Below the pieces are notes generated by a model, which searched no databases, was not told where the DNA came from, and worked only from the letters and a program-made list of their open reading frames with translations. 64,000 nt of DNA from a virus, in the IMG/VR virus record IMGVR_UViG_3300021091_005330, positions 1-64,000 of that record. One strand, written 5' to 3'. Position 1 is the first letter of the stretch; the number at the start of each line of letters is the position of its first letter. Shown here one piece after another: positions 11,606 through 63,384 of this stretch. A program made the translations under genes and the position numbers.

Positions 11606-13804
11606 ATGAGTCTTACTTTTCCAATTATTAATAATAAATTGTTAGGGGATTTGCCTTTTAATTTAAATGTTACTAGCACTTTATCTGATACAATATCTTA
11701 CAATAGTTCTCATGAAAATGTGGCTCTAGTAGATTACAATGGAAACGTTAGTATTGTTGGCGTAGGAGATTGTGTAATAACCGCTACTCAAAATCAAAAT
11801 ACAGCAAATAGAACTTTAAGAGTTATTATGCCAAATATTTGTGGAGATTTACCTCCAGAGATTTGTGGTTATAATTTTTATAATTATAAATTAACTTTAT
11901 CTGGAGATGAAAATAATGTTAATTTACCAAATACAAAACATAAATTAATCATATCAACAAATTGTAGCGGTAATTTTGTCCCTTTCCATGAAAGCGAATA
12001 TCTTCCGTATAATTCAGAGAATGTATATTATGCTAATTTGAATTCTGGAGATTATAAAGTAGAAATCAAAACTTTACATACTGATCCAACTACTTTTCCA
12101 TGCTGTCCAGTAATTGGAGTAGAAGTACTAAATTTAATAGATTATACATATAGTAATAAAACATCATTATGTGTATTTAATAATAATTTCTTGACTTTTA
12201 TAAGTGGATTTTTAGCGGAAAATCCTTATAATCAAGCTTCAAATATTTATTTTGCAGACAATCCATTTTTTATATCAGGCTCTGATTTAACAAGAAATAC
12301 TGGAGATTTAATTAATACTTTAGTGAAATCAAAAGCAAAAGAAAAAGAATATGAAAGATCTTGCCTTAATCAAGTATTAGATTTAGTAACAGGGAAAGTA
12401 CTAAAAAATGAAGAAGAAGTTCCGTATATTAATTGGAATGAAAATGCTTTTAAAGTAATTAATATTATTACAAATAATCTGCCTTTATTAGAAACATTTC
12501 ATAAGGAACAAGACGATTGTAAAACTTTAGATCCAAATTATCATCCTTCAGTTGGAACAGAAATTACTGGTTTTTATCAAAAATTAAAAGATATAAAAAA
12601 TTTATTGAATCCAGAAAAAACAACTATTAATTTTGTATTTTCAGATAAAGAATTAAATCTTAATTTAGATCAAGAACAATCTTTTGTAAATGAAGAATCA
12701 GCCGTATTAATGTATCAAAAAGCTGCAGAAATTGTTAGCGGATCTTTTTTTAGAAATTCAATCGCTCCTGTATTCCAATCAATTAATGCTATATCAAACT
12801 TTACATGCTCTGGTCAATCTAAAATAGAAATTTCATCTTCATCTTCATCTTCTTCAATCCCACCATTTAATAATCCAATTATTATTTTCCCACCTCCACC
12901 TCCACCACCTCCTCCACCACCTCGGCCACCACCACCTCCGCCACCACCACCTCCACCACCTCCGCCACCACCACCTCCACCACCTCCCCCACCACCCCCT
13001 CCACCTCCCCCCCCCCCACCCCCACCCCCCCCTTCACCACCACCATCTCCTGCTTATCCATCTCCAGTTCCACCTCCTCCTCCACCACCACCATCTCCTG
13101 CTTATCCATCTCCAGCGCCTGTTTCACCACCACCGCCAAATCCTGGTCCTCCTCCACCCAATATTCGATGTAGAGCTTGTGCAAGTTATGATGGAGGAGT
13201 TGGTAATAAAAATCCCTGGTGTGACGCATTTTCTTGTGCAGCTAAACATGGAGGGAGTATTTTTGATTATCAATCTTGCGCTGATGTAGTAGTGGAGGGC
13301 ACACCTGGTTGCGCACGTCCAACATATGTTTGTCAAAAATGTAGAAAAAAATGTTGGGATAATTGCCAATGTAAAGGCTGTCGTGGGTGTACTGCATGTT
13401 GTCCTTGTCCATATTTTTGTTGCGATGCATTTTGTGTTTCTTGTGGAGATTGTGGAACTTGCGTTTATGAATGCAATTGTTTAAGCATAAAAGTAAACTC
13501 TTTGTATGATGCAAACCTATCTAGTAATGATGCAGAATCAATTGCATACGAAATTGTGTTAAAAGAAATTTCTGAATTAAATGATAATTTACAATTTATA
13601 GAATCTGCAATTAGCGCAGCAATGTATATTGGAATGTATCATTTAGATACAAATACAATTAAATTTTCTCCAAACGGAAGAAAGCATTTAGTTTTTTGTT
13701 TAAATGAAATGCTGGGGGCAGATTATTCTAATTATAATGAGATTATTGAGCGACATCAAAATAATGCAAAAAATGAAGTTAAAGCTCAAAGAGGTATATT
13801 ATGA
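11606..13804 (+). CDS. Virion protein: Big_2 Ig domain, poly-Ser, poly-Pro (extensin-like) stalk, Cys-rich domain
   Basis: N-terminal SSHENVALVDYNGNVSIVGVGDCVITATQ; P11-R-P36 tract; SPAYPSP repeats; dense CxxC/CC cluster. Confidence 0.75.
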   Translation: MSLTFPIINNKLLGDLPFNLNVTSTLSDTISYNSSHENVALVDYNGNVSIVGVGDCVITATQNQNTANRTLRVIMPNICGDLPPEICGYNFYNYKLTLSGDENNVNLPNTKHKLIISTNCSGNFVPFHESEYLPYNSENVYYANLNSGDYKVEIKTLHTDPTTFPCCPVIGVEVLNLIDYTYSNKTSLCVFNNNFLTFISGFLAENPYNQASNIYFADNPFFISGSDLTRNTGDLINTLVKSKAKEKEYERSCLNQVLDLVTGKVLKNEEEVPYINWNENAFKVINIITNNLPLLETFHKEQDDCKTLDPNYHPSVGTEITGFYQKLKDIKNLLNPEKTTINFVFSDKELNLNLDQEQSFVNEESAVLMYQKAAEIVSGSFFRNSIAPVFQSINAISNFTCSGQSKIEISSSSSSSSIPPFNNPIIIFPPPPPPPPPPPRPPPPPPPPPPPPPPPPPPPPPPPPPPPPPPPPPPPPSPPPSPAYPSPVPPPPPPPPSPAYPSPAPVSPPPPNPGPPPPNIRCRACASYDGGVGNKNPWCDAFSCAAKHGGSIFDYQSCADVVVEGTPGCARPTYVCQKCRKKCWDNCQCKGCRGCTACCPCPYFCCDAFCVSCGDCGTCVYECNCLSIKVNSLYDANLSSNDAESIAYEIVLKEISELNDNLQFIESAISAAMYIGMYHLDTNTIKFSPNGRKHLVFCLNEMLGADYSNYNEIIERHQNNAKNEVKAQRGIL
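12890..13115 (+). repeat. CCN-codon poly-proline tract with C11 homopolymer and 33-bp direct repeat
   Basis: Pro codons 12890-12922 and 12926-13033; C11 at 13007-13017; caccaccaccatctcctgcttatccatctccag at 13035-13067 and 13083-13115. Confidence 0.9.
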
Positions 13805-14010
13805 ACTGTAAATCATATAAAGAATATTTATTAAAAAGATCTTATATAAATGATCCATTCAAATCGTATAAATTTGTTAATCATTGTAAAATTATAGAGC
13901 AAATATTAGGCCTAAATTGTTCTGATAATTGTCAAGAAAATATATATAAATTATATTGTGAGAAACCAGAAGAACTTAAAGAAATAATAGATTCTATTAC
14001 TTTAGAATGA
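13801..14010 (+). CDS. Small Cys-containing hypothetical protein
   Basis: ATGA overlaps with both neighbours (translational coupling). Confidence 0.7.
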   Translation: MNCKSYKEYLLKRSYINDPFKSYKFVNHCKIIEQILGLNCSDNCQENIYKLYCEKPEELKEIIDSITLE

Positions 14011-14867
14011 AATTTTTTTATTCTTTTTCTTTAAAAAATACGCCAATTAACAAAAAAGAAGAAATATTAAATAAAGATTATTGGAAATTATCTACAGATT
14101 TAGTAAAAAAACACTATAATGAAGTTTATCTTATAACAGATCTTGAAGGCGAAAAATTTTTAAAACATTTAAATTTTACAAAAATATACACAGTATTAGA
14201 TAAAGTCCCAAAATTTAAGAATAAAGTTTTATGGTCATTGTCAAAAATTTATGCATATAGGTTTATAGCTAAAAATTTTAATTCCTTTTGTCATATAGAC
14301 CATGACGTATTTCTTTGGAAACCTATACCAAAATTTTTAATAGAATCTTCAGTATTTCTTCAATCTTATGATGTACCATTATGGAATAAAAATAAAAAAT
14401 CGGGCGTTTACAACGTACACGGTTTTTATGATATAAAAAATATATTATATCCAGTATCTAGAAAAATACCTAACGTTTGGGAAAATCATATTATAAAACC
14501 TAATTTAAATATTAATTTATATAATATGGGCTTGTTTGGAGCTAATAATTCTGAAATTATTTTAAATTATACAAAATTTGTAATAGATATGGTCAGGAAT
14601 CCTGATTATCAAAACGTATGGGAATTTTATTTAGATTATCATAATGTTGCGGTCTTTTTAGAACAATTAAATCTTGGAGTATTTTTTTATATTAATAACA
14701 TTACTCCCAATTTATACTTTAATTCCTATACTAATGGAAGATTTGAAAGTCCGTTAGAATACACCCATCTAATGGTACATAAACAAAGAAATGATATAAA
14801 AAATATAATTAATAATATCGTCAACAAAGATCCTTACGATTTATCTCCTAAAGTTATTTTTAAATAG
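14007..14867 (+). CDS. DUF6734-like, glycosyltransferase-like (GT-A, DxD) protein
   Basis: WSLSKIYAY...FCHIDHDVFLW, NMGLFG, EQ and YTHL motifs. Confidence 0.6.
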   Translation: MKFFYSFSLKNTPINKKEEILNKDYWKLSTDLVKKHYNEVYLITDLEGEKFLKHLNFTKIYTVLDKVPKFKNKVLWSLSKIYAYRFIAKNFNSFCHIDHDVFLWKPIPKFLIESSVFLQSYDVPLWNKNKKSGVYNVHGFYDIKNILYPVSRKIPNVWENHIIKPNLNINLYNMGLFGANNSEIILNYTKFVIDMVRNPDYQNVWEFYLDYHNVAVFLEQLNLGVFFYINNITPNLYFNSYTNGRFESPLEYTHLMVHKQRNDIKNIINNIVNKDPYDLSPKVIFK

Positions 14868-14878
14868 AAATTTAATAA

Positions 14879-14902
14879 GTGTAATCCTATAAAGGTAAAA
14901 GG
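14879..14902 (+). promoter_or_regulatory. GTGTAA element plus AGGTAAAAGG leader motif
   Basis: GTGTAA 14879-14884, AGGTAAAAGG 14893-14902, ATG 14905. Confidence 0.6.
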
Positions 14903-34880: not shown

Positions 34881-35276
34881 ATGATAGAAAACTATGGCTC
34901 GATTTATTATAATAAAGATAAGATCGAGATCCATAACCCTTGGGAGTTAGCGCAACTTCAAAAGGAATATCCTATCTTTAAAGATCAAGAAATCTTAAAT
35001 TTAATTGAATTAATAAATAATCCTGTGGTGGCCTGTAAAGATTTAAGAGAAAATGAATATGTTGATCTCTCTAAAGAAATAAATAAAAAATATAAGTCCG
35101 TATTTACTAATACATTTGATTTTATATCAGCAATAAACTGGTCCGCTGTTCCTAATGAATGGGCAGCAAAAAAAATTATAATTTTGTGTGATTCTTTAAT
35201 TTTAAAATCTGTAAGCGTATCGCCCGTCTTCTCAAGATTGCCACCATTTTTCTCCGTCACTGGGGAATATATTTAA
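34881..35276 (+). CDS. Hypothetical protein
   Basis: Isolated + strand ORF preceded by GTGTAA (34867-34872). Confidence 0.7.
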   Translation: MIENYGSIYYNKDKIEIHNPWELAQLQKEYPIFKDQEILNLIELINNPVVACKDLRENEYVDLSKEINKKYKSVFTNTFDFISAINWSAVPNEWAAKKIIILCDSLILKSVSVSPVFSRLPPFFSVTGEYI

Positions 35277-36143
35277 GTCCCTTAGTAATGTTTTTGTGTC
35301 ATATGCTGGGCCAAAAACTATCGACCAAGATCTTTCGCATAAATATCCATACACCCAGTGTTTTAAATTTAAATCTTTTATTTTTTTATAGCTCTCTATA
35401 GAGTTTTGTAAAATTCTATCTTTTTTAACACCGAAGCATGCGCCAATGCACATAAAATATATTGATGGAAATTTTCTTTGATTAAATTTTGGAGTTATCT
35501 CGCATTTATTTAAAAAATTTTCAATTATATTGATATTAGCATCTTTCTTGAGCGTATGACACAAACTATCTATACTTGTAAATTTTTCATTTGGAAATCC
35601 AAGTTCTTTTAAAACTTCTAAATATAAATTCATATCATATGGAAAAAAATAATCTGCCGCTAATAAATACTTTAAATTATAAAGATGCCCTGAGCATCTG
35701 TATTCTTTTAAATGCTTATTTTTTATGTGCTCTGCCTCTAAAACTTTTTTTGGAGGAACTTCGTGTTCATCTGAATATCGGTCAGTCAAACACTGAAAAC
35801 TTTCATAATCTTCATAATTTTTTAATAATTTCGAAAAATCAGGAGAGTGCTTATGAGGTTCAGCCTGAGTAAATATTGTTAAATCTGCTAAATTATCATA
35901 GTTTTTTATTATGTGGTGTAAGTATGTATCGCTTTCTCTGCCTTCGTTGGGTAATTTTAATATTTTAGATTTTGGATTTTTTTGTAATGTTGTTAAAAAA
36001 TAAGATAAAGACATAGTCGGTTCTAAATTGGATTCATCTAATTTCTGATAAAAATATACATTAAAATTATTTGGTATATCATTTAAAATCCAATTAATTT
36101 CAGATTCATTATAATAAGATATAACTATGTCTATTTTATTCAT
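35232..36143 (-). CDS. DUF3431-like (glycosyltransferase-like) protein
   Basis: PNEGRESDTYLHHIIKNYDNLADLTIFTQ; ERSW..VF. Confidence 0.75.
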   Translation of the reverse strand: MNKIDIVISYYNESEINWILNDIPNNFNVYFYQKLDESNLEPTMSLSYFLTTLQKNPKSKILKLPNEGRESDTYLHHIIKNYDNLADLTIFTQAEPHKHSPDFSKLLKNYEDYESFQCLTDRYSDEHEVPPKKVLEAEHIKNKHLKEYRCSGHLYNLKYLLAADYFFPYDMNLYLEVLKELGFPNEKFTSIDSLCHTLKKDANINIIENFLNKCEITPKFNQRKFPSIYFMCIGACFGVKKDRILQNSIESYKKIKDLNLKHWVYGYLCERSWSIVFGPAYDTKTLLRDLNIFPSDGEKWWQS

Positions 36144-37227
36144 TTATTTTATTAAATTTATTTATAGCAGATCCAATAATTTGATGCATATCATAATACT
36201 TATATTCTGCTAATCTCCCTCCAAAGATTACCTTTGTTTCTTTTACACTCAAATCTTTATATTTTTTATAAACTTCATTATTCATGTCATTATTAACTGG
36301 GTAGTATGGAGTTTTGTCTTTATTCCATTCGTCTGGATATTCTTTAGTTACATATGTGTATTCTTGGTCTTTAAATTCGAAATGTTTATGTTCTATTATC
36401 CTTGTGTAAGGTATATTATAATCCGTATAGTTTATAACCGCATTTCCTTGGTAATCCTTAATTAAATATTTTTTCGTTTCAAATCTCAAGCTTCTGTATT
36501 CTAGTTGTCCGTATTCATAATTAAAAAATTCATCTATTTTACCAGTATAAACTATACATTTAGCTTTTTTATCCCAATAATCTTTTCTGTCAAAATAATT
36601 TTCATTCAAGATGATATCCGCACCATCTACCATATTTTCTATCATTTTTGTATAACCCCCAATTGGAATTCCTTGATATTTATCAAAAAAATAATTATCA
36701 TCAAAATTTAATCTAATTGGTAGTCTTTTTATAATAAAAGATGGAAGCTCTTTGGGCTCTTTTCCCCATTGTTTTTTAGTATAACCATATATAAAGGTAT
36801 GATAAATTTCTTCCCCAACTTGACTTAATATCCATTCTTCTAGATTCTTTGGTTCTTTGATTTTAAGTTTAACTTCTTTTAGTTTATTTTTCGCTTCTTC
36901 TGGCGTATTAACTCCCCAAAGCTGGTATAATGTGAAAAGATTGATAGGAAAAGAAAACAATTTATTCTTAAAATTAACTTTTGGTCTATTAATATAATTA
37001 TTAAATTTTGTAAATTTATTTATATAATCCCAAATTTCATCATTATTTGTATGAAATATATGAGGGCCATACTTGTGGATATTAATTCCTTCAATATTTT
37101 CTGTATAGCAATTTCCTCCTATATGATTTCTTGAGTCTATGATTAAACATTTTTTACCGTTTTCTTTGGCTTTATTCGCAAATGTAGCTCCAAAAAGACC
37201 ACAACCAACAATTAGAAAATCATACAT
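36136..37227 (-). CDS. glf: UDP-galactopyranose mutase
   Basis: GCGLFG, HIGGNCY, HKYGPHIFHT, PYYP, GRLAEYKYYDMHQ. Confidence 0.97.
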   Translation of the reverse strand: MYDFLIVGCGLFGATFANKAKENGKKCLIIDSRNHIGGNCYTENIEGINIHKYGPHIFHTNNDEIWDYINKFTKFNNYINRPKVNFKNKLFSFPINLFTLYQLWGVNTPEEAKNKLKEVKLKIKEPKNLEEWILSQVGEEIYHTFIYGYTKKQWGKEPKELPSFIIKRLPIRLNFDDNYFFDKYQGIPIGGYTKMIENMVDGADIILNENYFDRKDYWDKKAKCIVYTGKIDEFFNYEYGQLEYRSLRFETKKYLIKDYQGNAVINYTDYNIPYTRIIEHKHFEFKDQEYTYVTKEYPDEWNKDKTPYYPVNNDMNNEVYKKYKDLSVKETKVIFGGRLAEYKYYDMHQIIGSAINKFNKINE

Positions 37228-37229
37228 AA

Positions 37230-37853: not shown

Positions 37854-38913
37854 TATTTTCTATATCATTTTTCACCATTCTTTTCACTAAATCATCAAAA
37901 GAATTTTTTGGATTCCATTTTAATTCATTTCTAGCTATAGAAGAATCTCCTAACAAAAGACTGACTTCAGCTGGTCTATAAAATTGTTTATTTATTTTAA
38001 CCAAAGTCAATGGCATATATCTTGGTGTGGAATTAATTGCAGTTTTATATTCTAGATTTTCTGGAATTTCTTCATTAGAAGAATATGACCAATGAGCTAA
38101 AACCCCTGCTGATTTAAAAGCTTTTTCTACGAACTCTTTAATAGTATGAGTTTCGCCAGAAGAAAGTATATATTCTTTGGGCTCATTTTGATTTAACATC
38201 AGCCAGATGCCTTCAATAAAATCTTCTGCATGACTCCAATCTCTTTTAGCTTCTAAATTGCCAAGTTCAATTGGCAAAAAATTTTCATTCTTTTTTAAGC
38301 TATGAAATATTCTTGCTACTCCTTTTGTAATTTTTCTGCTTACGAATTCTTCTCCTCTTCTTTCGCTTTCGTGATTATAAAGTATTGAGTGAATAGCATA
38401 TAAATTATAAGATTCCCTATATACCTTTGTTATATGTCTAGCAGAAGCTTTTGCTGCTCCATAAGGGCTTCTAGGTCTAATTGGATGATTTAAATCTTGA
38501 GGACTATACAAAACATCTCCCATTTCTTCGCTAGAACCAGCAGAATAAAATCTACAATTCGGCGCATATTTTCTTATTGCTTCTAAGCACCTTAGAACTC
38601 CTAAAGCTACAGTATCAAATGTTTGTATAGGCAGTTGCCAACTACTACCTACAAAAGATTGAGCCGCAAAATTAATAAAATAGTCTGGCTTAACATCTTT
38701 TACTATTTCGTCTATAGAATTGCTATCAGATAGGTCAGCTATAATAATTTTTAGTCTAGGGTTATTAATATTATGTTTTATATTTTTTAAATTTGGATTA
38801 GAGCTTCTTCTTCTTATGCCATAAATTTCATAATCAGTATTATTTAATATAAAATCAACCATATAAGAGCCATCTTGTCCCGTGACTCCTGTGACTATAA
38901 CTTTTTTGCTCAT
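37840..38913 (-). CDS. gmd: GDP-mannose 4,6-dehydratase
   Basis: GVTGQDGSY, AAQSFV, PRSPYGAAK, NHESERRG, RDW, FYRPAEV. Confidence 0.95.
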   Translation of the reverse strand: MSKKVIVTGVTGQDGSYMVDFILNNTDYEIYGIRRRSSNPNLKNIKHNINNPRLKIIIADLSDSNSIDEIVKDVKPDYFINFAAQSFVGSSWQLPIQTFDTVALGVLRCLEAIRKYAPNCRFYSAGSSEEMGDVLYSPQDLNHPIRPRSPYGAAKASARHITKVYRESYNLYAIHSILYNHESERRGEEFVSRKITKGVARIFHSLKKNENFLPIELGNLEAKRDWSHAEDFIEGIWLMLNQNEPKEYILSSGETHTIKEFVEKAFKSAGVLAHWSYSSNEEIPENLEYKTAINSTPRYMPLTLVKINKQFYRPAEVSLLLGDSSIARNELKWNPKNSFDDLVKRMVKNDIENNEIS

Positions 38914-39548
38914 ACTTTTATAATATCTTTAAGTTGTTCTAATTTAGATTTTTCATTTCCAGTATTATTTTCGGTAAGTCCTAAGGCATGATAAATAAAG
39001 CTTCCATGATCATTAAAAGAGTGAGACGGAAAAGTAGAAGTTTTTTCAGCAAATTTTTTATAATTTTCTCTAAGCATGGCTTGAAAAATTGGTTGATCGT
39101 CTATTGAGCCATCGTTTATTTCACAAGCTTCTATTGAGGAATTAATTATATCCAACATATATTCAGAACTTTTAATAAAAAATACTCCAAAATTAAAATT
39201 CCAATATCTATCTTGTGGCTTTTGATTAACGTAACATACTATAAATTCAGCATTTTTGTCGGACATCTCTATAAAATTTTTTAAATTGATGTCATGATTT
39301 AATATTACAGCATCCGCATCTAAATAAAAAATCCAGTCATATTTTTCATTTTCTATTATTGATTTTAATATAAATGGTTTATTCCAGTATGCTCTTCTTT
39401 CATTAGTTATGCTTTTAGGAACAAAATCTCCAATATAGTCTTGATAATCTAAATTGTATTTTTTGCAATACTCTATATTCTTTGGTTTAGTTAAATTGAG
39501 CGCGTTCATAAACCTGTCATCGGAATGTTGTATGACTTTAATACGCAT
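38910..39548 (-). CDS. GT34-like glycosyltransferase
   Basis: YWNKPF, WIFYLDADAVI, NFGVFFIK, DQ. Confidence 0.75.
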   Translation of the reverse strand: MRIKVIQHSDDRFMNALNLTKPKNIEYCKKYNLDYQDYIGDFVPKSITNERRAYWNKPFILKSIIENEKYDWIFYLDADAVILNHDINLKNFIEMSDKNAEFIVCYVNQKPQDRYWNFNFGVFFIKSSEYMLDIINSSIEACEINDGSIDDQPIFQAMLRENYKKFAEKTSTFPSHSFNDHGSFIYHALGLTENNTGNEKSKLEQLKDIIKV

Positions 39549-42296: not shown

Positions 42297-42833
42297 ATGT
42301 ATTTTTCTCAGATAGGACAGGATAGGCTTGTGGATAATTTTTTAGATTTTAAAACTAATGGATATTTTTTAGATATAGGAGCTCATCATTACAGACACAT
42401 AAGTAATACTTACTTTTTTGAAAAGGTAAGAAATTGGCGAGGAATCGCAGTAGAGCTAGATCAATCATTTCAAAACGAATGGATCTCTAATAGACCTAAT
42501 TCTATTTTTATTAATCAAAACGCTTTAGATATTAACTATAGAGATTTATTATTAAAATATGATTTTTCATTAAAAATAGATTTTCTTTCTTTAGATTTAG
42601 AGCCACCAGAAGTAACTCTTGAGGCTTTATACAAAATATTTCAAAGTGATATTACTTTTAACACTATAGCTTTTGAAGTAGATGATTATAGACAAAAGAA
42701 TACTAAGAATAAATCTCGGGAATTTTTATCATCTAAAGGTTACCATTTTGTAGCAGAACTTTATGATAGAAATAATTCTGGTATGATACATGTAGACGAT
42801 TTTTGGGTACATAAGTCTATTCTAAAAAATTAG
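42297..42833 (+). CDS. FkbM-like SAM methyltransferase
   Basis: SQIGQD, FLDIGA, SNTYFFE..W.GI.VE, IDFLSLDLE. Confidence 0.8.
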   Translation: MYFSQIGQDRLVDNFLDFKTNGYFLDIGAHHYRHISNTYFFEKVRNWRGIAVELDQSFQNEWISNRPNSIFINQNALDINYRDLLLKYDFSLKIDFLSLDLEPPEVTLEALYKIFQSDITFNTIAFEVDDYRQKNTKNKSREFLSSKGYHFVAELYDRNNSGMIHVDDFWVHKSILKN

Positions 42834-43953: not shown

Positions 43954-44289
43954 ATGGAACATCTTCAGTGGTTATTAAATATATCTTTTGGAATTGGAGC
44001 CTTTCTTGCAGGATGGGTATTTACCCGTCTTTTTTCTATGATGGATAATCAAGATAAATTAATGAAAGATATAAATGACAAAACTTTCACAGATTTTATT
44101 ACTTTAAGAAAAGAAGTAGAAGCAGAAAGCAGAAAACATCAACAAGATATATCTGATTTAGCATTAAAAATAAGCACTACTTATGTTACAAAAGAGTCGT
44201 TTGAGATATATTTTGATAGGATAGAAGCTAAATTAGATAGAAATTTTGAAATTATTCAACAGCATTTAATCAATAAAAATAAACATTAA
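43954..44289 (+). CDS. Single-TM, coiled-coil membrane protein (holin/XhlA-like candidate)
   Basis: N-terminal hydrophobic helix, YVTKE..F..IE.KLD; GTGTAA at 43940-43945. Confidence 0.45.
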   Translation: MEHLQWLLNISFGIGAFLAGWVFTRLFSMMDNQDKLMKDINDKTFTDFITLRKEVEAESRKHQQDISDLALKISTTYVTKESFEIYFDRIEAKLDRNFEIIQQHLINKNKH

Positions 44290-45065
44290 CTATATAGTTT
44301 ATCTATTTTACCTCTCATAGAAACTTTTGAATAATTTTTAACTTGTTCGTCTATTGGCATCAGCTCATTATTATTATTTAGCTGAAAAAATTGTTTAGCT
44401 AAATGCATTTTAGGGTCGAACATATAAATATTTAACATTGGATTGCATATCATAGATATGTCAATCTCATTAACCATAGGAATCATTTTGGTTAAGACTT
44501 TATTTATATTTTCACCTTTAATTAAATATGCATGACATCCTATGCCTGGATAATCCGGCCATGGAGGATTGTAAACGCCTTGGAAAACATTATGTTTTTG
44601 AAAATTTATTTTTTTAACTTTAGTAGAATATATTTCATTATCTTTGTAATTAAAATTCTCTTCTGTTAGGGTATCTAGAAAGCAAATATCATAGTTATTT
44701 GGTATACTATTGGTTATTATATTTAATATATTTCTATTTACGACTACATCATCTTCTAAAATTAAGAAATCTTCATTTCCTAAAGCTTGATTTTTTTTTA
44801 CTTTATCTTGTATATTTTTCCACATTTTAATATGAGATAAGGCTGCCCCAGCCGACCATTTAACTTTCTTTAATCTTCCATATAAAAATGCACCACTTAA
44901 ATTCGGGTTTTTTAATTCATCGTCCAGCAATGCTCCATTAATTCCATCGAAATAAATTATTTCGTATTTATTTAAATTAGCTTCTTTTATATAGTTTTTT
45001 ATTACTTCTAATCTATCTTGACATTCTTTAAAATGTTTAGCTAAAGTTAGTACATATATGATCAT
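44286..45065 (-). CDS. GT25 glycosyltransferase
   Basis: FDGING, LSHIKMW, LILEDDV, GCHAYLI, EID. Confidence 0.8.
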   Translation of the reverse strand: MIIYVLTLAKHFKECQDRLEVIKNYIKEANLNKYEIIYFDGINGALLDDELKNPNLSGAFLYGRLKKVKWSAGAALSHIKMWKNIQDKVKKNQALGNEDFLILEDDVVVNRNILNIITNSIPNNYDICFLDTLTEENFNYKDNEIYSTKVKKINFQKHNVFQGVYNPPWPDYPGIGCHAYLIKGENINKVLTKMIPMVNEIDISMICNPMLNIYMFDPKMHLAKQFFQLNNNNELMPIDEQVKNYSKVSMRGKIDKLYS

Positions 45066-45070
45066 ATATG

Positions 45071-45418
45071 TTAATTTTCTAAAGTAGGATGTCTTTTATT
45101 TTTTCTTTTTTTCTTCCACCCTTGTAAATATTTCTTTTTTAGTGGATCTTCTCCATATATTTTTTTTCTTTTTTCAGAAAGTTCAGAGCTTCTATCCATT
45201 AGATCACCGATAGTACCTTTTTTATTTTTTGTAAATTCAGAAAATTGTTTTTCTGTGCAATTAACATCAAGAGTACCTTCTGTATTTAATTGAGGAATCG
45301 TAAATACTCTTTCCCACTTAACACCTTCTTTATCAATGTATTCGTGTGTCTCATGAATACTTTGAATTATTTCTATGATTTTTTTAGTAGTGGGATGCTG
45401 ATATATATATTGAGGCAT
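45071..45418 (-). CDS. FmdB-like small protein (Zn ligands absent)
   Basis: MPQYIYQ....IEIIQSIHE...WERVF.IP. Confidence 0.5.
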   Translation of the reverse strand: MPQYIYQHPTTKKIIEIIQSIHETHEYIDKEGVKWERVFTIPQLNTEGTLDVNCTEKQFSEFTKNKKGTIGDLMDRSSELSEKRKKIYGEDPLKKKYLQGWKKKRKNKRHPTLEN

Positions 45419-46515
45419 TATTTATTTATAATATTTATAATATTATCATACATTTTTTTATCAGAGAAAGATTCTTGTAATTTTAATCCTTCTGTATTAA
45501 TTGGATCTTTTTCTACTTTTTCTATTGCTTTTTCGCAACCATGTATGAATTCTTCTTCATCAAAATCGTATATATGTCCTTGATTAAATGGGATATCTTT
45601 TTTGAAGAACATATTATCATACGCTTCTATTTTATCCTTACTAGGGTTTACTAATATAGAATTGTTTTCATTAGCCCATCCTTTGTATCCGTGAGCATTC
45701 ATAATAATTCCATGTTTACCTAACGCAACAGAATGAAACTCGGGTAAACCCCAACCTTCGCCGCCACTCATACCAATTATAATATTCGCACTATTTAGAA
45801 AATCATTGTACGCCGTATTTTTTTCCATCATGCCTAAGAAAGATATATTAAAATATTTATTTCCTTCTAAAATATTTAAAATAAGATTCTGTTGATCTTC
45901 AATTTTTAAAAACGGATTAAATATAGCGCACTGTAAGAAATATTTTTTATTATTTCCAAATTTTTTAATCCATGATTTTATTATTTTCTGATGTCTTTTT
46001 CTTTTTTCTAATTTGCCACATAGATTGAAAACTATTCTTCCATCTTGAAAATACTTTTTTGATGTCTGTTTAAAATTGTAATGATCAAACGCTAATGGTA
46101 CGTAATGCACATTTTTACAGCCCTTAGATCTAAAATTTTCTACCGAAAATTCAGAACTAAATATTACATTTTTTTGATTTGCTACGATGTTTACTTCTTC
46201 TTTTGTTGGAGCATCTAATTCGTAGAATGTGAATAAATTTTGTTCTTTAGAAAGACTCTCTAAAGAACCGTTAAGATGCCATAATTTAAAATTAGGATTA
46301 TTTCTATCATGCCTACTTAATGATATAGAAATTTTATTTTCTATCCATTTTATAAAATTAGGATTGATAGATTCTTGAGCTGATAAATCTATTTGATTTC
46401 CTATAACAAATAAATCAGGATCTACCTTACTATCAAGAAGAAAATTTCTCAATAATAAGGTAGAAACCTGACCAAAACTTACAGAATTAACTGGAAGATT
46501 TAGACAAATTCTCAC
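45418..46515 (-). CDS. GT4 glycosyltransferase
   Basis: GKLEKRK, GEGWGLPEFHSVALGK. Confidence 0.85.
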   Translation of the reverse strand: MRICLNLPVNSVSFGQVSTLLLRNFLLDSKVDPDLFVIGNQIDLSAQESINPNFIKWIENKISISLSRHDRNNPNFKLWHLNGSLESLSKEQNLFTFYELDAPTKEEVNIVANQKNVIFSSEFSVENFRSKGCKNVHYVPLAFDHYNFKQTSKKYFQDGRIVFNLCGKLEKRKRHQKIIKSWIKKFGNNKKYFLQCAIFNPFLKIEDQQNLILNILEGNKYFNISFLGMMEKNTAYNDFLNSANIIIGMSGGEGWGLPEFHSVALGKHGIIMNAHGYKGWANENNSILVNPSKDKIEAYDNMFFKKDIPFNQGHIYDFDEEEFIHGCEKAIEKVEKDPINTEGLKLQESFSDKKMYDNIINIINK

Positions 46516-48842: not shown

Positions 48843-49123
48843 AAACCATATTGATAGGATCACTAGAGCACCTATATGATTTACTTGTGAATAATGAAGA
48901 CATAATTTACAAAGATGGAAGAATGGCTATAATCAAAGATTATCTTGATGCGGCGTATACTGGATGTTCTTGTCAAAGAAAAAATAATGAAGGTAAAGCA
49001 TTTGAAATTGTAAAGTCTTTAAAAGATACAATAAATCAAACAGTTCTAAAGGAATTAAAAGATAAAAATCAGGCAGAAAAAATAATTTTTCAATTTGAAA
49101 ACGTACTTTCATTCGAATTGTAA
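48839..49123 (+). CDS. Hypothetical protein
   Basis: Coupled ORF, GCSC motif. Confidence 0.7.
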   Translation: MKTILIGSLEHLYDLLVNNEDIIYKDGRMAIIKDYLDAAYTGCSCQRKNNEGKAFEIVKSLKDTINQTVLKELKDKNQAEKIIFQFENVLSFEL

Positions 49124-50139
49124 TGGATATTTACTTTTTTCAATGGATATCTGAACTCGGTGGAGCAGATACAAGACTTAAAGATTTAATTAAATTATTC
49201 AGTAATAATACAAATTTTAATTTACATTCAATACCAAATGATAGTTTTAGATTAAAAGAGAAGCATAATGTAGATTTTCTAAAATCTCATAATGTAAAAA
49301 TTTTAAGTTGGGACGAGCTTCCATATAAACTTAATGGCTTTGCAATTTCTTTTTGTAATTTTAAATTATTTTTAGATAGGTGGAGACTAGAAAGAATTAA
49401 ACAGTCTGGATTAAAATTTATATGGTCAAACGATATGACTTGGAGACTAGAAGAAGAAGTCTCAGCTATTCAAAATGGATGCGTAGATGCACTTTTATAT
49501 ATAGATGAATACCATAGAGACAATCTCTTAAAAGAAAAATATGATTCGCATAAATCTTTTTTTATAGAAAATTATTTTGATATTGAATCGTATCCGTTAA
49601 TTAATAGAAGTAATGATATTTTTTCCGTAGGTAAACACAGCAGACCAGATTATTTGAAATTTTCTGATGATTTTCCGCAGGTTTATGATTTAGGTCTTAA
49701 CTCGGTAAAATATAAAATAATGGGAGTCCATAAAAATTTTAAAGAAAGATTTAGTTGGTTTAAATTCGATGATAAGTGGGATTTGATGGAAGCAAATACT
49801 CAACCTACATTAGAATTTTTAAAATCACTAGACCTATACATGTATAATAGTCATCATTCATTTACGGAAACTCAATGTAGAGCGACAATAGAATCTATGC
49901 TGACAGGCTTACCTGTCATTGCTCCTAAAAAACATAACTTTTTAAAACAAATTATTCATAATCAAACTGGATTTTTATTTAATTCGGCAGAAGAATCTAA
50001 ACAATACGCTAAAGAATTAGCTAGGAATAATAGCTTAAGATATCGAATGGGTAAAGAAGCTAGAGAGCTTAATAAAAGTTTATGGTGCAATGAGCAAAAA
50101 CATTTAGAAAAATGGCAAAAAATATTTAATGCTATATGA
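49123..50139 (+). CDS. GT4 glycosyltransferase
   Basis: GGAD, SRPDYLKF, ETQCRATIESMLTGLPVI, TGFL. Confidence 0.85.
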   Translation: MDIYFFQWISELGGADTRLKDLIKLFSNNTNFNLHSIPNDSFRLKEKHNVDFLKSHNVKILSWDELPYKLNGFAISFCNFKLFLDRWRLERIKQSGLKFIWSNDMTWRLEEEVSAIQNGCVDALLYIDEYHRDNLLKEKYDSHKSFFIENYFDIESYPLINRSNDIFSVGKHSRPDYLKFSDDFPQVYDLGLNSVKYKIMGVHKNFKERFSWFKFDDKWDLMEANTQPTLEFLKSLDLYMYNSHHSFTETQCRATIESMLTGLPVIAPKKHNFLKQIIHNQTGFLFNSAEESKQYAKELARNNSLRYRMGKEARELNKSLWCNEQKHLEKWQKIFNAI

Positions 50140-50936
50140 AAATTTGTTATTGGACTATAGCTTACGGAGAATACGCTTATATGGCTCAAGCTCTTATCGA
50201 TTCTTTTAATAGACACGAAATTCATGGAGACTTTCTTTGTTATTCAAATCTAGAACTTAAAAATTGCATCAATAAAAGCATAGATAAAGATATATCTTTA
50301 GACCTAAACTCTTATTTATTTAAATTTTTATATTTAAATAAATTAAAAGATTTTGATTATGATTATTTTATTTTTTTAGATTGCGATTCTTTCTTTGTTA
50401 GAAAACCAGAGATTGGTATATCTTATATTATTGAAGATGGAGTTCCTTGGCATTCTTTTTTAGAAAGTCCAATAAATTCGTATAAAACACTTAGAAGAGA
50501 TTGGTGGGGCGTAGAAGTTAATGATCTTACTACATTTTATAGAGAACTAGGAGTTAATCACGAAGAAATAAGAAATACAAACGCTGGATTCTGGATCTGC
50601 AAAAAAGATTTTATAGACGAAGCAATAAACTTAGGAATGAAATGCTATAATTATATTTCAAATAAAGGATATAAAATAACAGAAGAAATCCCTATGGCTT
50701 ATATAGCTAATATAGTTAGCAAAAAAGTAGAGAAAAGATTTCATGATTATTATTTTAATTATTGGGCTTCTGATTGGACGGGTGCATTTAGGAACATTAT
50801 TCCATATAACAAAGCTTGGGAATATGAGTCTTATATGACTACTGAAAAATATATTATACAACCAGCCTTAATCCACGCTATGAGAAGTAAAAGAGCTTTA
50901 ATTGATCTTGGCAAAAATATCTTGACCCAATCATAA
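50136..50936 (+). CDS. GT-A fold glycosyltransferase (DxD)
   Basis: YFIFLDCD, NAGFW, TEE, C-terminal His. Confidence 0.65.
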   Translation: MKICYWTIAYGEYAYMAQALIDSFNRHEIHGDFLCYSNLELKNCINKSIDKDISLDLNSYLFKFLYLNKLKDFDYDYFIFLDCDSFFVRKPEIGISYIIEDGVPWHSFLESPINSYKTLRRDWWGVEVNDLTTFYRELGVNHEEIRNTNAGFWICKKDFIDEAINLGMKCYNYISNKGYKITEEIPMAYIANIVSKKVEKRFHDYYFNYWASDWTGAFRNIIPYNKAWEYESYMTTEKYIIQPALIHAMRSKRALIDLGKNILTQS

Positions 50937-52061: not shown

Positions 52062-52710
52062 ATATTTAATAATTTCAGACATTCATCTTGGAGACAAAGA
52101 TTCAAAACCAGAAGTATTACTAAAAGTATTAAAAAAATATAAAGCTAAAAATATTATTATTGCTGGTGATCTTTTCGACCATCATAATTTAAAAAGATTA
52201 AAAAAGAATCATTGGAAAGTATTGTCACAATTAAGAAAACTAAGCAAGAAATCAAAAGTAATTTATTTAATAGGCAATCATTGTTTTCTTAATTCAGAGT
52301 TTATGAGCATCTTATTAGGATTTGATTGTAGAGACGAATTAGAAATAGAATTAAACGGAAAAAAGATTTTAATAGTTCACGGCGATATATTTGATATATA
52401 TTTTACAAAGTATAAATGGATTAGTAATCTTATAATTAAAATATATTATTGTGCTAGAAAAACTATTATAGGAGAGATATTCTTTGATATTTTCAAACAC
52501 CATACTAAAAATTTTGTTGAAAAAAGCGGAAAAATAAAATACAACGCTCTCAAATATATAAAAGAGAATGGATACGATAAAGTTATATATGGGCATAGTC
52601 ACATCCCTGATCATGATGACAAATGTATTAATACAGGAAGCTTTTGCGAAGAAAAATGTTCGTTTGTTTTAATTAATAAAAAGAATGAAATTTTGTTAAA
52701 TTATTTATGA
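52051..52710 (+). CDS. Calcineurin-like metallophosphoesterase (LpxH-like)
   Basis: DIHLG, GD, GNH, HGD, GHSH, NTGS. Confidence 0.85.
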   Translation: MVNKYLIISDIHLGDKDSKPEVLLKVLKKYKAKNIIIAGDLFDHHNLKRLKKNHWKVLSQLRKLSKKSKVIYLIGNHCFLNSEFMSILLGFDCRDELEIELNGKKILIVHGDIFDIYFTKYKWISNLIIKIYYCARKTIIGEIFFDIFKHHTKNFVEKSGKIKYNALKYIKENGYDKVIYGHSHIPDHDDKCINTGSFCEEKCSFVLINKKNEILLNYL

Positions 52711-53222
52711 TTGTTAGCGTAGAAAACTTATTAGATTTTAATTGCTGTAATAATTTAATATCTATTTATAAAGATAACAGCGATAAAAGTAAACTATGGG
52801 GAACCTCTTTCCCATTAAATGTTTTTCAAATACCTTTTCGCAAACAACAAAATTATATTTTCGAAGTAAAAAATTTTATTAAAAATTTTGCTGTGAATTT
52901 CTATAAAGAAAATTTAATAGAAGAACATATAGATATTGTGAAGTGGCCTAATGATTCATATCAGAATTACCATTTAGACACAGCAAGAAATACTACAGTT
53001 TTAACTTCTATATCTTATTTAAATGATGATTTTCAAGGAGGAGAAACCATTATAAATACAGAAGAAAAAGCTGTGAAAATTGTTCCCACTAAGGGTAAAA
53101 CAGTATTTTTTGATGGTTTAAAATACTTGCATTGCGTAAATAAGGTTTTTGGAGAAAGATATGTTTTGGCTATATGGTATAAAAGTTTAAATTTAAAAAA
53201 TATTGACTTTAAAGCTACTTAA
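52707..53222 (+). CDS. 2OG-Fe(II) oxygenase, prolyl 4-hydroxylase-like
   Basis: HLD...YLNDDFQGGET...H.V..V..GERY. Confidence 0.85.
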   Translation: MIVSVENLLDFNCCNNLISIYKDNSDKSKLWGTSFPLNVFQIPFRKQQNYIFEVKNFIKNFAVNFYKENLIEEHIDIVKWPNDSYQNYHLDTARNTTVLTSISYLNDDFQGGETIINTEEKAVKIVPTKGKTVFFDGLKYLHCVNKVFGERYVLAIWYKSLNLKNIDFKAT

Positions 53223-59644: not shown

Positions 59645-59907
59645 AGGATTGGTGGAATGGACTTGAATATTACGAAAAGTTCTTTTTTATTGTTTTTATT
59701 CCAGCTATTTTGTTTACAATTTACGGAATCAGCGATCTTTACCTTAATCATTTTGATCTTCTTTCTAAAGATCACCATATGGGATTTTTTCTTAGATTCT
59801 TTTTTCCGATCTCTTTAGCTCTTTTAGTTACTAGTTTAGAACGCAGAAGAAGGAACAAATTAGTTAAAGATATAAAAGAATATTTAGAAGATGAAAAAGA
59901 TCAGTAA
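59620..59907 (+). CDS. Two-TM membrane protein (holin-like candidate)
   Basis: Two hydrophobic helices, charged C-terminus. Confidence 0.45.
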   Translation: MLDTIKKLKDWWNGLEYYEKFFFIVFIPAILFTIYGISDLYLNHFDLLSKDHHMGFFLRFFFPISLALLVTSLERRRRNKLVKDIKEYLEDEKDQ

Positions 59908-61138
59908 AGTTGTGTCTCTTGGCGCAACTTATTATTATATGGAGATCTGGCTTACAACCCTAAAAGACAATCTAGTAGATCCAAGTTCTGAAAGATATGA
60001 TTGGATAAAGAAAAATATTAATTTATACCCCGAAATCAAAATAATACATTCTGTAGATGGTAGGAATAAAGACTTAGTTAAACTTGCTTTAAAAGAATCT
60101 GGATTAAATCTTTATCAACTTGGATTTAGAACTTACGGAACTTTAGCTGTTTTTTTAACAAAATTTTTAGCGTGGAAAAAACAAGTCAAAGATAATATTC
60201 CTTACGTATGTCTTATAGAAGACGACATAGAATTAAATGAAGCATTTTGGCCTTTTTTAGAAAGCAAAAAACATTTACTAGAAGATCCAAGCATCAACAT
60301 TGTAAGGCTTGGCGACTGGGGCGAAGCCTATTTAACTTCTTTGTCTTCCGCCAAAAGATTAATAGAGAAAATACAAAAAGATGGAATTTGGAGAAATATT
60401 GATGAACAATTATGGGAATGCGGAGAGTCGGTTGTAAACAAATCTATTGGCGGGGGTCAATCTGGAGTTCATTACGAAAATAGGTGGGTAAATGGCGTAT
60501 GGGAACATACAGGTTATCAAGAAAATATATTTAAGCTTTTAAAGCAAACAAATGAAGGTTTACCATTAAACACCCAACTCATAGACCAAGAACTTAGCGA
60601 AAGTTATTTTGCGGGTGGACCATTTGACATGAGAAAACGAGAAATTCAAGACATTTTAGAAAGCGTAACGTCTCCTAGTAATTATCTAACTTTTGGTCTT
60701 GGCTCTTCGGCTATTATACTATTGAAAAATTTAAAAGAGAATGAATCTCTTACAAGTTATGAATGGGGCGAAAGCTATCTTTCTTGTCTTAAATATAAAA
60801 ATAGTTTTAATATTACTGATGAAAAGTTTATGATAAATGATTTGTCTAAAAATGATCCTTCTTTGTTGGAAGATTTTATCAAAAAATGGGGGAAGTATGA
60901 TGAAGAAATACCAAATAAAATTTTATACGATTTAATAGCGATTGACTATAAAAAATATGATACTTACATCTTAGACGGTTTTTTAAGGGGTTTGACTACT
61001 TTTTTAGCTTTAAATAATAATTCCAAGGCAGAAGTATTCATCCACGATGCTTCTAGAGATTGGTACGATTGGCTAAAGGTTATATTTAATGTAGAGCATA
61101 TCTCTCAAGATATAATTAAAATTTTTAATAAAAAATAA
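59891..61138 (+). CDS. GT25 glycosyltransferase fused to a methyltransferase-like domain
   Basis: SVDG, CLIEDDI, EAYL, NID; C-terminal YLTFGLGSS..SYE..ILDGFLR..FIHDASR. Confidence 0.7.
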   Translation: MKKISKVVSLGATYYYMEIWLTTLKDNLVDPSSERYDWIKKNINLYPEIKIIHSVDGRNKDLVKLALKESGLNLYQLGFRTYGTLAVFLTKFLAWKKQVKDNIPYVCLIEDDIELNEAFWPFLESKKHLLEDPSINIVRLGDWGEAYLTSLSSAKRLIEKIQKDGIWRNIDEQLWECGESVVNKSIGGGQSGVHYENRWVNGVWEHTGYQENIFKLLKQTNEGLPLNTQLIDQELSESYFAGGPFDMRKREIQDILESVTSPSNYLTFGLGSSAIILLKNLKENESLTSYEWGESYLSCLKYKNSFNITDEKFMINDLSKNDPSLLEDFIKKWGKYDEEIPNKILYDLIAIDYKKYDTYILDGFLRGLTTFLALNNNSKAEVFIHDASRDWYDWLKVIFNVEHISQDIIKIFNKK

Positions 61139-62335: not shown

Positions 62336-62360
62336 GCGGCGAGCGTTCAAATGCCTTAAT

Positions 62361-62435
62361 CTATTTAATTCTCTCTTTTAAATAAAGTATATAAAGCAAC
62401 ACAACACCACATAATAGCCAAGAAGATATACTCAT
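62361..62435 (-). CDS. 24-aa single-TM microprotein
   Basis: MSISSWLLCGVVLLYILYLKERIK*, 9 nt downstream of a minus-strand GTGTAA (62450-62445). Confidence 0.5.
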   Translation of the reverse strand: MSISSWLLCGVVLLYILYLKERIK

Positions 62436-62493
62436 ACCTATAACTTACACATAGAAATTATTGATTTTCTATGGTTACGATAATATAATTATT

Positions 62494-63384
62494 ATGAATT
62501 TAGAACTTCTTAAAAATCATCCATATATTTCGCCAGATATAAAAATAGAAAGATTTAATAGCCCATACAATTATATTGTAATAGATAATTTATTTAAAGA
62601 AGAAATATACAACTCAATGTGCGAACTATTTCCTAAATATATTGATCGCCAGAAAAAGCCAGCAGGAAAAATAGGAGACAGCGAAAGATTTTACAATGCT
62701 CTTATATATTCTATGAAAGAAGAAGATTGCAAAGGCGGATATGATTTTTTTACAAGTGAAATATGGAAAGATTTTATAGCAGAAACTTTTGGATTAATAT
62801 TAAATCAACATACTGCATATTCTTTGCATTTTCATAATGGATCTCCAGAAACTCCTTCTAAAAGCGGTTGGCCTCATGGAGATATAGCTGTTTGCTCTGT
62901 TATAGATGATCCATCTAAAAAGATTAAAATAGCAGCGCATGATTGCATATATGATGAAGACACAGAAGATCTTCAACCTCACACCAATAAAGTTGTAAGA
63001 CAAGTTGCGCTCTTGTATTATTTTAATAACAAAAAAGACTTACAAGAAGGAGATGGTGGAGGTACTGGCGTTTATACTTCTTATGATGAAGAAAGTCTTG
63101 TAAAAGAAGTTAAACCAATTAATAATCGTATATTTGCTTTCGAAGTGTGCCCACATTCTTATCATGGATTTATTGGAGCAAAGTTTGATAGATCATCTAT
63201 AGTTCAATGGTTTCACTCAAGCCCTTCTTACTTTTTATATAGAAATTTGGCGGGGATGAAAAACAGAGTTAAGAACAACTTAGAGTTTTTTGAAAGATGG
63301 AAGAAGGGTACGCTTTGGAATATTGAAAAAGATCCTTACTATTTTAAATATTTTAATAGTAGTTTAAAAGAGTTGTTAAAGTGA
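62494..63384 (+). CDS. 2OG-Fe(II) oxygenase
   Basis: PYNYIVIDNLF, WPHGD, ALLYY, NNRIFAF..SYHG..R; ATG 62494 follows TTGATT-17-TATAAT (ORF track TTG 62461 is the -35 element). Confidence 0.8.
   Translation: MNLELLKNHPYISPDIKIERFNSPYNYIVIDNLFKEEIYNSMCELFPKYIDRQKKPAGKIGDSERFYNALIYSMKEEDCKGGYDFFTSEIWKDFIAETFGLILNQHTAYSLHFHNGSPETPSKSGWPHGDIAVCSVIDDPSKKIKIAAHDCIYDEDTEDLQPHTNKVVRQVALLYYFNNKKDLQEGDGGGTGVYTSYDEESLVKEVKPINNRIFAFEVCPHSYHGFIGAKFDRSSIVQWFHSSPSYFLYRNLAGMKNRVKNNLEFFERWKKGTLWNIEKDPYYFKYFNSSLKELLK

Follow-up and report, generated by a model that had tools for sequence, protein, structure and literature searches.

The window analysed here is the stretch from base 1 to base 64000 of one virus record of 77,651 bp (IMGVR_UViG_3300021091_005330). 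In it, a gene for a fibre-like protein with a long proline tract (11606) is followed, after one small open reading frame (ORF), by a gene of the family DUF6734 (14007). As DUF6734 travels with tract-bearing proteins in unrelated phages, we favour the reading that the phage sugar-coats its own fibres on Ser/Thr residues, although we would place its probability somewhat short of even. According to this model, the fibre-like proteins would consist of folded domains that are joined by homopolymer spacers to a distal Cys-rich knob, the spacer being a Ser run followed by a polyproline rod of ~90 residues. DUF6734 would take a nucleotide sugar in the host cytoplasm and O-glycosylate Ser/Thr residues that lie within or next to the spacer of the upstream-encoded fibre protein, before the virion is assembled. 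Hydroxyproline would not be needed.

A preliminary description of the window had listed two proteins with long Pro runs, and both (encoded at 1..402 and 11606..13804) were confirmed in the sequence. The C-terminal module of the 11606 protein starts with eight serines (12833-12856), continues with a Pro tract (about 12890-13162) and a Cys-rich region (about 13163-13490), and closes with a helical end. About 90 residues of the Pro tract are almost pure proline with SPPPSPAYPSP motifs; these and SPn motifs exist, yet the tract is mainly made up of unbroken Pro runs, 11 to 45 residues long. Since the tract is encoded by mixed CCN codons in a genome of 29% G+C, it is not a chance feature. As a polyproline II (PPII) helix, it would form a rod roughly 25-28 nm long. 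The adjoining Cys-rich region holds 26 Cys within ~100 residues; neither relatives nor a fold of such Cys-rich knobs were detected in an Atlas search of the tail. The poly-Pro protein gave zero matches in a tblastn search against phages, and the fibre N-terminus, used as a single-protein query, gave no matches in a scan of viral contigs. In the gene at 1..402, the record's first bases fall inside the poly-Pro coding run. A like module (at least 52 Pro, SPPP repeats, Cys-rich) lies at the contig end of one relative, G001, upstream of a giant fibre gene.

For comparison, we used eight related IMG/VR contigs (G001-G008) and three metagenome contigs (L001, L002 and L009), the present contig being G000; every gene of the latter was scored against the whole relatives. 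Homologues of the 11606 protein occur in L001, L002 and G001 (51-53% identity). They are complete ORFs of 443 amino acids (aa) that end just past the Ser run without a Pro/Cys tail, and they are followed directly by a homologue of the gene at 14905. The Pro/Cys tail, the 69-aa ORF behind it and DUF6734 are thus present or absent together, and they form one insertion or deletion of ~2.6 kb. Within this block, ATGA overlaps at 13801-13804 and 14007-14010 bear out the translational coupling that had been described from 11606 through the 69-aa ORF to 14007. No homologue of the 69-aa ORF was found in the relatives or among the small ORFs upstream of other DUF6734 genes.

DUF6734 comprises 715 representatives at E<=0.001, whose clusters are labelled mostly viral in the Atlas. 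K80, F94, D98, D100 and H254 are invariant in 62 aligned members, and H96 is conserved in at least 90%. An AF2 model (predicted local distance difference test score, pLDDT, 89.7; predicted template-modelling score, pTM, 0.91) was matched by Foldseek to enzymes of glycosyltransferase (GT) family GT6 with a probability of 1.0. VIA-align matched GT8, GT6 and GT24 enzymes, giving Z scores of 11-12 over ~200-227 residues for glycogenin, the Skp1 alpha-galactosyltransferase (Gat1), WbbM, BoGT6a, UGGT, LgtC and LARGE1; just below were protein-glucosylating GT-A toxins and GlyE of the pneumococcal serine-rich-repeat system (Z 10.2). The GT-A fold together with the invariant D98-x-D100 and H254 upholds the earlier view of 14007 as a DxD glycosyltransferase-like gene, and we predict a retaining GT-A enzyme that falls structurally into the GT8/GT6 class and binds its metal through a DxD...His site. 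As the fold matches tie across families, the fold alone cannot tell the acceptor. By sequence, the protein could be placed in no named CAZy or Pfam glycosyltransferase family: only PF20508 (DUF6734) was matched, NCBIfam and PHROG remained blank, and a phmmer search of the PDB gave no relevant match. A literature search found no paper mentioning DUF6734.

The same pairing recurs elsewhere. We collected 33 further IMG/VR loci with DUF6734, representing 25 clusters at 60% identity, and called a protein tract-bearing if it held a window with at least 24 S/T/P in 30 residues. The immediately upstream gene on the same strand was tract-bearing in 5 of 30 cases compared to 6 of the remaining 564 ORFs (Fisher p=8.8e-5), and the six 'background' ORFs all encode large fibre-like proteins in the same gene rows. 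Three of the five tract-bearing upstream genes were Cys-rich too, versus none of the 564. Their tracts were (PT)n in L055, poly-Ser with Cys in L060 and L079, and poly-Pro with a Ser-rich part and Cys in L061 and L065. At its C-terminus, the protein from L061 carries a Peptidase_S74 domain, a tail-fibre chaperone. In the relative G007, a DUF6734 gene (31% identity) stands in a co-oriented row with genes for proteins of 1775 and 1292 aa, the former containing (TPTS)n. Scans of viral contigs with a single DUF6734 protein, and of viral and metagenome contigs with a two-sequence alignment, gave no matches. The expected co-occurrence of DUF6734 with tract genes is seen in the shared insertion or deletion as well as in the recurrence beside Ser/Thr/Pro-tract genes in unrelated phages. 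As these tracts differ (poly-Ser, (PT)n, or poly-Pro plus poly-Ser) and share Ser/Thr by a Cys-rich region, we place the putative acceptor on Ser/Thr.

Several proteins encoded directly upstream of DUF6734 (L053, L055, L065, L079 and L080) have similar Gly-rich C-termini (...GGGIGGGGI, ...GVGGGGI, ...GQGLGVTLL, ...AQGLGMEFLN and ...GDGIGLSLL). This motif could be a recognition or processing signal.

The fibre-like proteins owe their assignment to Ig-like, He_PIG and RCC1 domains and to PHROG tail-fibre matches. The structural setting described before holds to this extent, but the contig carries no capsid or tail core gene. For the set at 426..11567, the basis is Pfam together with PHROG matches to tail fibre and Ig structural proteins, and the set occurs in G001, L001 and L002 only; the fibre genes from 426 to 18714 as a whole are common only to these three and partly to G008.

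Several points weigh against Ser/Thr glycosylation by DUF6734. The five tract-bearing upstream genes fall in 4 of the 25 DUF6734 clusters, to which tract adjacency is confined. The PHROG neighbours of DUF6734 are mixed (dUTPase, DNA polymerase, ribonucleotide reductase, UvsX, portal, tail fibre and baseplate), so that the family is not restricted to fibre modules. G002 encodes five SPn/poly-Pro proteins and no DUF6734, and a second DUF6734-like gene of the present contig, located beyond the window (70534-71517, 327 aa; hmmsearch E=1.8e-24 against the family alignment), has no tract-bearing neighbour. The fold ties extend over many GT-A families, and for several of these the substrate is a glycan and not a protein; homopolymer tracts break assemblies, truncating many contexts. 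Poly-Ser and Pro/Thr linkers also occur as unmodified spacers in bacterial enzymes. Finally, the Ig-like domains and PHROG matches point to a virion role of the fibre-like proteins indirectly, and we infer acceptor, sugar, timing and virion incorporation from metagenomic sequence.

Table 1 Features of the window and the cassette of two relatives. Positions refer to the window unless a relative is named.
Feature	Position	Strand	Description	Distribution
Truncated Pro-rich gene	1..402	+	3' end of contig-truncated gene: poly-Pro/SP-rich tract, Cys-rich region (20 Cys), poly-Ser end	
Fibre-like set	426..11567	+	201 aa; 1277 aa (He_PIG Ig domains); 403 aa (RCC1 propeller); 1802 aa (Big_2)	
Fibre-like protein	11606..13804	+	732 aa; N-terminal ~420 aa conserved	
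Small ORF	13801..14010	+	69 aa, 5 Cys; ATGA overlaps with both neighbours	
DUF6734 (PF20508)	14007..14867	+	Predicted retaining GT-A glycosyltransferase; Pfam E=3.5e-24	
Possible GT9-like	20230	-	398 aa	Lineage core
DUF6165/DUF4254	21430	-	125 aa	Near relatives only
GT-B glycosyltransferase	21809	-	638 aa; Glycos_transf_1 at threshold, PHROG 2170 glycosyltransferase	Lineage core
Sugar-nucleotide/transferase cluster	35232..39548	-	GT34-like, Gmd, DUF3431, Glf, DUF3431-like	
DUF3431	35232 and 37230	-		
Glf	36136	-	E=1.5e-77	
Gmd	37840	-	E=3.5e-104	
GT34-like	38910	-	Start codon at 39548	
Possible FkbM-type methyltransferase	42297..42833	+	178 aa	G008 and G006 only
GT25 to GT-B-like	44286..46515	-	GT25 (44286), 115-aa ORF, 365-aa GT-B-like (45418)	44286 accessory; 45418 lineage core
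GT4/GT1 and next gene	49123..50936	+	GT4/GT1 glycosyltransferase (49123), 266-aa protein (50136)	Both G008 only
Nucleotide gene row	50958-56252		GMP reductase-type, metallophosphoesterase, 337-aa PurA-like, two DUF6065	Lineage core
2OG-Fe(II) oxygenase	52707..53222	+	171 aa, P4H/PHD-like; PF13640 E=7e-11	
tmRNA	56874-57262	-	Full-length, one-piece; Rfam 96 bits	
GT25 domain protein	59891..61138	+	415 aa, GT25 domain N-terminal	Accessory
PF13640 oxygenase	62461..63384	+	307 aa; E=1.7e-7, weak OGFOD1 match; earlier coordinate 62494 lies inside ORF	
PHROG 1644 match	63381	+	238 aa; 'minor coat protein' match only	
Cassette of relatives	G002 77752-84256; L009 12898-19024		Inserted between PurA-like and DUF6065 genes	

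Alternatively, the glycan genes might remodel the lipopolysaccharide (LPS), capsule or wall of the host, leading to superinfection exclusion or decoy loss, with the tracts being plain linkers and DUF6734 having come to lie nearby through a hot spot of gene gain. We regard this explanation as possible but doubtful. Of the 14 glycan genes that had been proposed (Table 1), Pfam or PHROG profiles support 11, whereas 20230 is tentative, 42297 sub-threshold and 50136 unsupported. For 20230, no profile matched; a low-confidence model (pLDDT 60) gave GT9 heptosyltransferases as top Foldseek matches (template-modelling score ~0.3), so we assign it to a GT9-like type tentatively. The FkbM match of 42297 reached E=0.019 and 15.5 bits, compared to a 22.7-bit cut-off, and profile searches gave no support for a glycan function of 50136. 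The 45418 protein has a PHROG glycosyltransferase match and a weak one to DUF3880. Glf- and Gmd-type genes would yield UDP-galactofuranose (UDP-Galf) and a GDP-6-deoxyhexose precursor, and the Glf, Gmd, GT34-like, DUF3431, GT25, GT4 and GT-B genes could either extend fibre glycans or remodel the host envelope.

Most of these genes are accessory and patchy among the eight relatives, whose core comprises the replication and nucleotide genes, 19430, 20230, 21809, 23729, Gmd and 45418. Both 20230 and 21809 are kept in G002, G005, G006 and G007. Of the 35232..39548 cluster, Gmd alone is found in all relatives; the complete cluster occurs in G001 and G008 only, Glf, both DUF3431 genes and the GT34-like gene being limited to the two nearest relatives. 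In one relative or none are 44286, 49123, 50136, 59891 and the whole row from 62461 to 66019. Many transferase and nucleoside diphosphate (NDP)-sugar genes therefore vary among close relatives, as in cyanophage envelope islands. Furthermore, GT25 and the possible GT9-like protein are of LPS-type families, and large cyanophages with up to 13 glycosyltransferases and 22 cell-wall genes have been read as modifying the host surface (PMC12801897). The mixed PHROG neighbours of DUF6734 fit host-surface modification, too.

The arrangement of upstream motifs also separates the glycan genes from the fibre genes. In a simple motif scan, GTGTAA was found 12-34 nt before fibre genes with intergenic gaps, including 11606; within the fibre-like set, it lies 15-34 nt upstream of the starts of 426, 1069 and 6159, and 4899 is without it. 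Over the contig it occurs 8-34 nt before 426, 1069, 6159, 11606, 14905, 18761, 42848, 43954, 57743, 58365, 58941 and 61403, and the whole 77.6 kb hold only 28 copies on both strands. A sigma70-like motif, TTGAC(A/T)-N16-18-TAnn(A/T)T, is located 6-7 nt before the starts of 19430, 23729, 27731, 31022 and 38910. For 38910, the first gene of the Glf/Gmd cluster (start at 39548, minus strand), the hexamer pair lies 6 nt before the start. By placement, GTGTAA marks fibre genes and the sigma70-like motif marks the Glf/Gmd cluster and replication genes. The genes from 20230 to 23725 (minus strand) share their orientation with the replication genes, and the Glf/Gmd cluster and GT-B genes share both strand and sigma70-like motifs with these and not with the fibre genes, as remodelling of the envelope would suggest. 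The 14 genes had been taken as one system; with at least five separate places, two upstream motif classes and mostly accessory members, this is not upheld.

However, the Pfam-scanned ORFs included no flippase, polymerase, ligase or initiating phosphoglycosyltransferase as would fit an envelope pathway. The adjacency of DUF6734 and tract genes is statistically non-random, often with overlapping stop and start codons, and tail, 69-aa ORF and DUF6734 were gained as a block. A second, HPAT-like family likewise accompanies SPn proteins. Of the proposal that the phage glycosylates its own fibres, what stands is thus the DUF6734/11606 pair, for which there is comparative evidence, whereas the other glycan genes are not tied to it.

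The HPAT family (PF23452) was detected in G002 (E=1.5e-21), a 32%-identical copy being present in L009; the search of the present contig gave no match. In both relatives the HPAT-like gene belongs to a conserved, inserted cassette (Table 1), where it is accompanied by genes for a ~930-aa protein, a 268-aa Cys-rich protein, a ~150-aa protein and a ~385-aa S/T/N/G/Y-rich protein. The Cys-rich protein ends in C-S-P(n)-SPP...-C, and no PDB relative was found for the ~385-aa protein. The lineage thus seems to pair Pro/Ser-tract, Cys-rich proteins with protein-type transferases, and to judge from its gene content, the G002/L009 cassette strengthens this general theme. Elsewhere in G002 (25416-28774), four more small paralogous Cys-rich proteins with SPP repeats are encoded, several of which start with M-G-C or M-C.

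A further explanation, resembling the extensin/Skp1 pathway, holds that a prolyl 4-hydroxylase (P4H)-like oxygenase hydroxylates the poly-Pro/SPn tracts and that HPAT- or GT8-like phage enzymes then build Galf/deoxyhexose glycans on hydroxyproline in the bacterial cytoplasm. We consider this quite improbable. The three 2-oxoglutarate (2OG)-Fe(II) oxygenases on which it was based are reduced to 52707 and 62461..63384, which were recovered by PF13640, whereas 63381 was not confirmed: no Pfam or PDB match and no similarity to 62461 were found. The 52707 protein is an intact PF13640 enzyme, with H89, D91, H142 and R151 invariant in 5 homologues, and its best PDB relative is a bacterial P4H, that of Bacillus anthracis (E=0.0017). 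SPPPS and SPn motifs in the phage and its relatives, the HPAT-family gene beside SPn proteins in G002 and L009, and the Skp1 hydroxyproline-glycan galactosyltransferase among the tied top folds of DUF6734 are in line with this route as well. In addition, a chlorovirus P4H acts on Pro-rich repeats (Eriksson 1999, as cited in PMC9301287).

The distribution of the oxygenases argues otherwise. The preset test, co-occurrence of hydroxylase and Pro-rich genes, turned out negative: 52707 is absent from all eight relatives, G008 keeping fragments with stop codons, and 68 IMG/VR loci of the 52707 family contained no Pro-rich or S/T/P-rich tract in any of 902 ORFs. This test is limited in that substrates need not adjoin and several genomes are incomplete. 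PF13640 occurs only in the present contig and in G006, whose 419-aa protein looks more canonical. The start of 52707 overlaps the metallophosphoesterase stop inside the nucleotide-metabolism row. No prolyl hydroxylase family (PF13640, PF03171) was detected in G002, with its five Cys-rich SPn/poly-Pro proteins and its HPAT-like gene; HPAT and SPn proteins without a detected hydroxylase mean less need for hydroxyproline. In the present contig none of HPAT, GT77 and GT47 reached threshold; PF03407 (GT77) gave 17.4 bits on 38910 compared to a 22-bit cut-off, and this gene scores as GT34. In other phages, the tracts next to DUF6734 are frequently poly-Ser or (PT)n and hold few Pro runs or none, which, together with the lack of PF13640/Pro-rich co-occurrence, speaks against a hydroxyproline acceptor. 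The 2OG oxygenases thus appear, from gene content, to be unlinked accessory genes, and nothing ties 52707 to the Pro tracts. At the level of titles and abstracts, we found no paper on hydroxyproline glycans of bacteriophage virions. The second oxygenase gene heads a phage-specific row in which it is followed by the 238-aa protein, two apparently hydrophobic proteins and a further protein (62461-64000, continuing at 64088-66019 of the record); no homologue of this row was found in the eight relatives.

Some of the glycosyltransferases might instead modify bases of the phage DNA to evade restriction, which we judge highly improbable. Here, 21809 adjoins dnaE and 44286-46515 lies beside the genes for a deoxynucleoside monophosphate (dNMP) kinase and dCMP deaminase, and DNA-hypermodifying transferases of phages are well documented (Pyle 2024, as cited in PMC12619734). 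Still, a DNA target is unlikely because there is no base-hydroxymethylating or TET-type enzyme among the Pfam-scanned ORFs, which lack a hydroxymethylase, a TET/JBP-type dioxygenase and a DNA methyltransferase. ThyX, dCMP deaminase and kinase are ordinary, the Glf, Gmd, GT25, GT34 and possible GT9 types suggest complex glycans, and the context of DUF6734 is one of fibre genes.

To our knowledge, mycobacteriophages are the only phages for which there is chemical proof that their own enzymes glycosylate the virion, and the parallels in giant viruses are well studied. Mycobacteriophage transferases O-glycosylate C-terminal regions of capsid and tail proteins in the host cytoplasm (Freeman et al. 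2023, as cited in PMC12619734 and PMC12801897). As in that system, a phage transferase gene stands here beside the structural gene that it presumably serves, 14007 following 11606. Unlike there, the enzyme belongs to DUF6734, an uncharacterised family, the present system is known from genes alone, and the putative acceptor is the homopolymer spacer of a fibre-like protein, not the C-terminus of a capsid or tail-tube protein. In the case of serine-rich-repeat adhesins such as pneumococcal PsrP, GT-A enzymes of GT8 type (GlyE) encoded nearby glycosylate the Ser-rich tracts in the cytoplasm. GlyE is among the fold matches of DUF6734, the likeness being one of fold and arrangement only; neither a GtfA/GtfB priming pair nor an accessory Sec system was seen here, where homopolymer tracts come together with a polyproline rod and a Cys-rich knob. 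With the extensin and Skp1 pathways, the phage shares Ser-Pro(n) motifs, a P4H-family oxygenase, sugar-nucleotide genes, HPAT in two relatives and the fold tie to the Skp1 transferase. The difference is that the oxygenase does not co-occur with Pro-rich proteins and that the tracts consist mostly of pure poly-Pro where extensins have repeated SP3-5 blocks.

In the case of the cyanophage glycan islands (P-SSM2, S-SCSM2R; PMC12801897), too, a large aquatic phage carries at least 10 genes of glycosyltransferase or NDP-sugar type, which are patchily distributed among relatives. The present phage differs in its separate lineage (DnaE replication, ~29% G+C) and in having one transferase that is recurrently linked to tract-bearing fibre genes. 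Among viruses of eukaryotic hosts, virus-encoded glycosylation has been shown chemically for chlorovirus capsid glycans and mimivirus fibrils (PMC9614988). Gmd-type sugar-nucleotide synthesis and several transferases are common to those giant viruses and the phage, and chlorovirus also has a P4H; unlike them, we deal with a bacteriophage known from sequence, and no homology of the transferases is established.

If DUF6734 acts on fibre spacers, a role open to testing could be assigned to this mostly viral family (about 700 clusters at 50% identity), along with a simple candidate acceptor, namely a homopolymer Ser/Thr/Pro spacer with a Cys-rich knob behind it. Fibres with mucin-like coats would then be common among aquatic phages, with a bearing on host recognition, particle stability and losses to grazing or adsorption. 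The findings also correct an unsupported idea, as the 'P4H' genes that are abundant in aquatic viromes are here unlinked to Pro-rich virion proteins.

The source of the contig appears from its gene content to be a large uncultured phage using DnaE-type replication. The record has no terminal repeat and is rated about 50% complete, and by CheckV-style estimation the entire genome would span about 150-170 kb; G+C is 26-33% across the window and ~29% for the phage. Pfam identified a split DnaE replicase (PHP, exonuclease, Pol III alpha), DnaB, a DnaG-type primase, ThyX and a RecA-like protein, along with class I ribonucleotide reductase, dCMP deaminase, a dNMP kinase-like protein, a GMP reductase-type enzyme and a short PurA-like enzyme. 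A megablast search with 50 kb against 50,697 phage records returned zero matches, and DnaE reached ~26-32% identity at best to isolated phages, none of which is close. The replication genes of the relatives show 60-97% amino-acid identity. The closest relative is G008, with proteins ~90% identical; G006 (171.9 kb) is rated complete and G002 86% complete. Some relatives presumably stem from lake samples, and we take the phage to be probably a freshwater one. The 'moraphage' lineage was rejected as a match, being a different group with PolB and genomes of 200-307 kb (PMC12619734).

The PurA-like protein stayed below the cut-off in every PurA model and also in PurZ (107 bits compared to 300). Together with the GMP reductase it may, judging from these gene assignments, shift the nucleotide supply of this AT-rich phage from G to A; a 2-aminoadenine route would be hypothetical. 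The phage, which carries a tmRNA (Table 1), must translate runs of 36-60 consecutive prolines. Long Pro runs stall ribosomes and need EF-P. A link between tmRNA and the translation of the Pro runs is speculation.

Homopolymer tracts (Pro, Ser, Gly) end the contigs G000, G001, G008, L060 and L061, so that tract genes are systematically truncated in public assemblies. A 238-aa protein encoded at 16569-17285 of the window ends in GNGGEGNGGGGGS. In its homologue at 1-141 of G008, a 15-nt repeat encodes a C-terminal run of at least 45 glycines, at which the contig breaks; an apparent poly-Pro run at this end was rejected, as it is the antisense of the poly-Gly C-terminus. Collagen-like proteins of 599-1207 aa with (G-A-T)n and G-x-y repeats are found in G007 (28911-32534 and 54683-58407), and large proteins of G006 carry (APTVAPTS)n, (PSPG)n and (GAPVP)n tracts. 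Low-complexity spacers thus appear to be a habit of the lineage.

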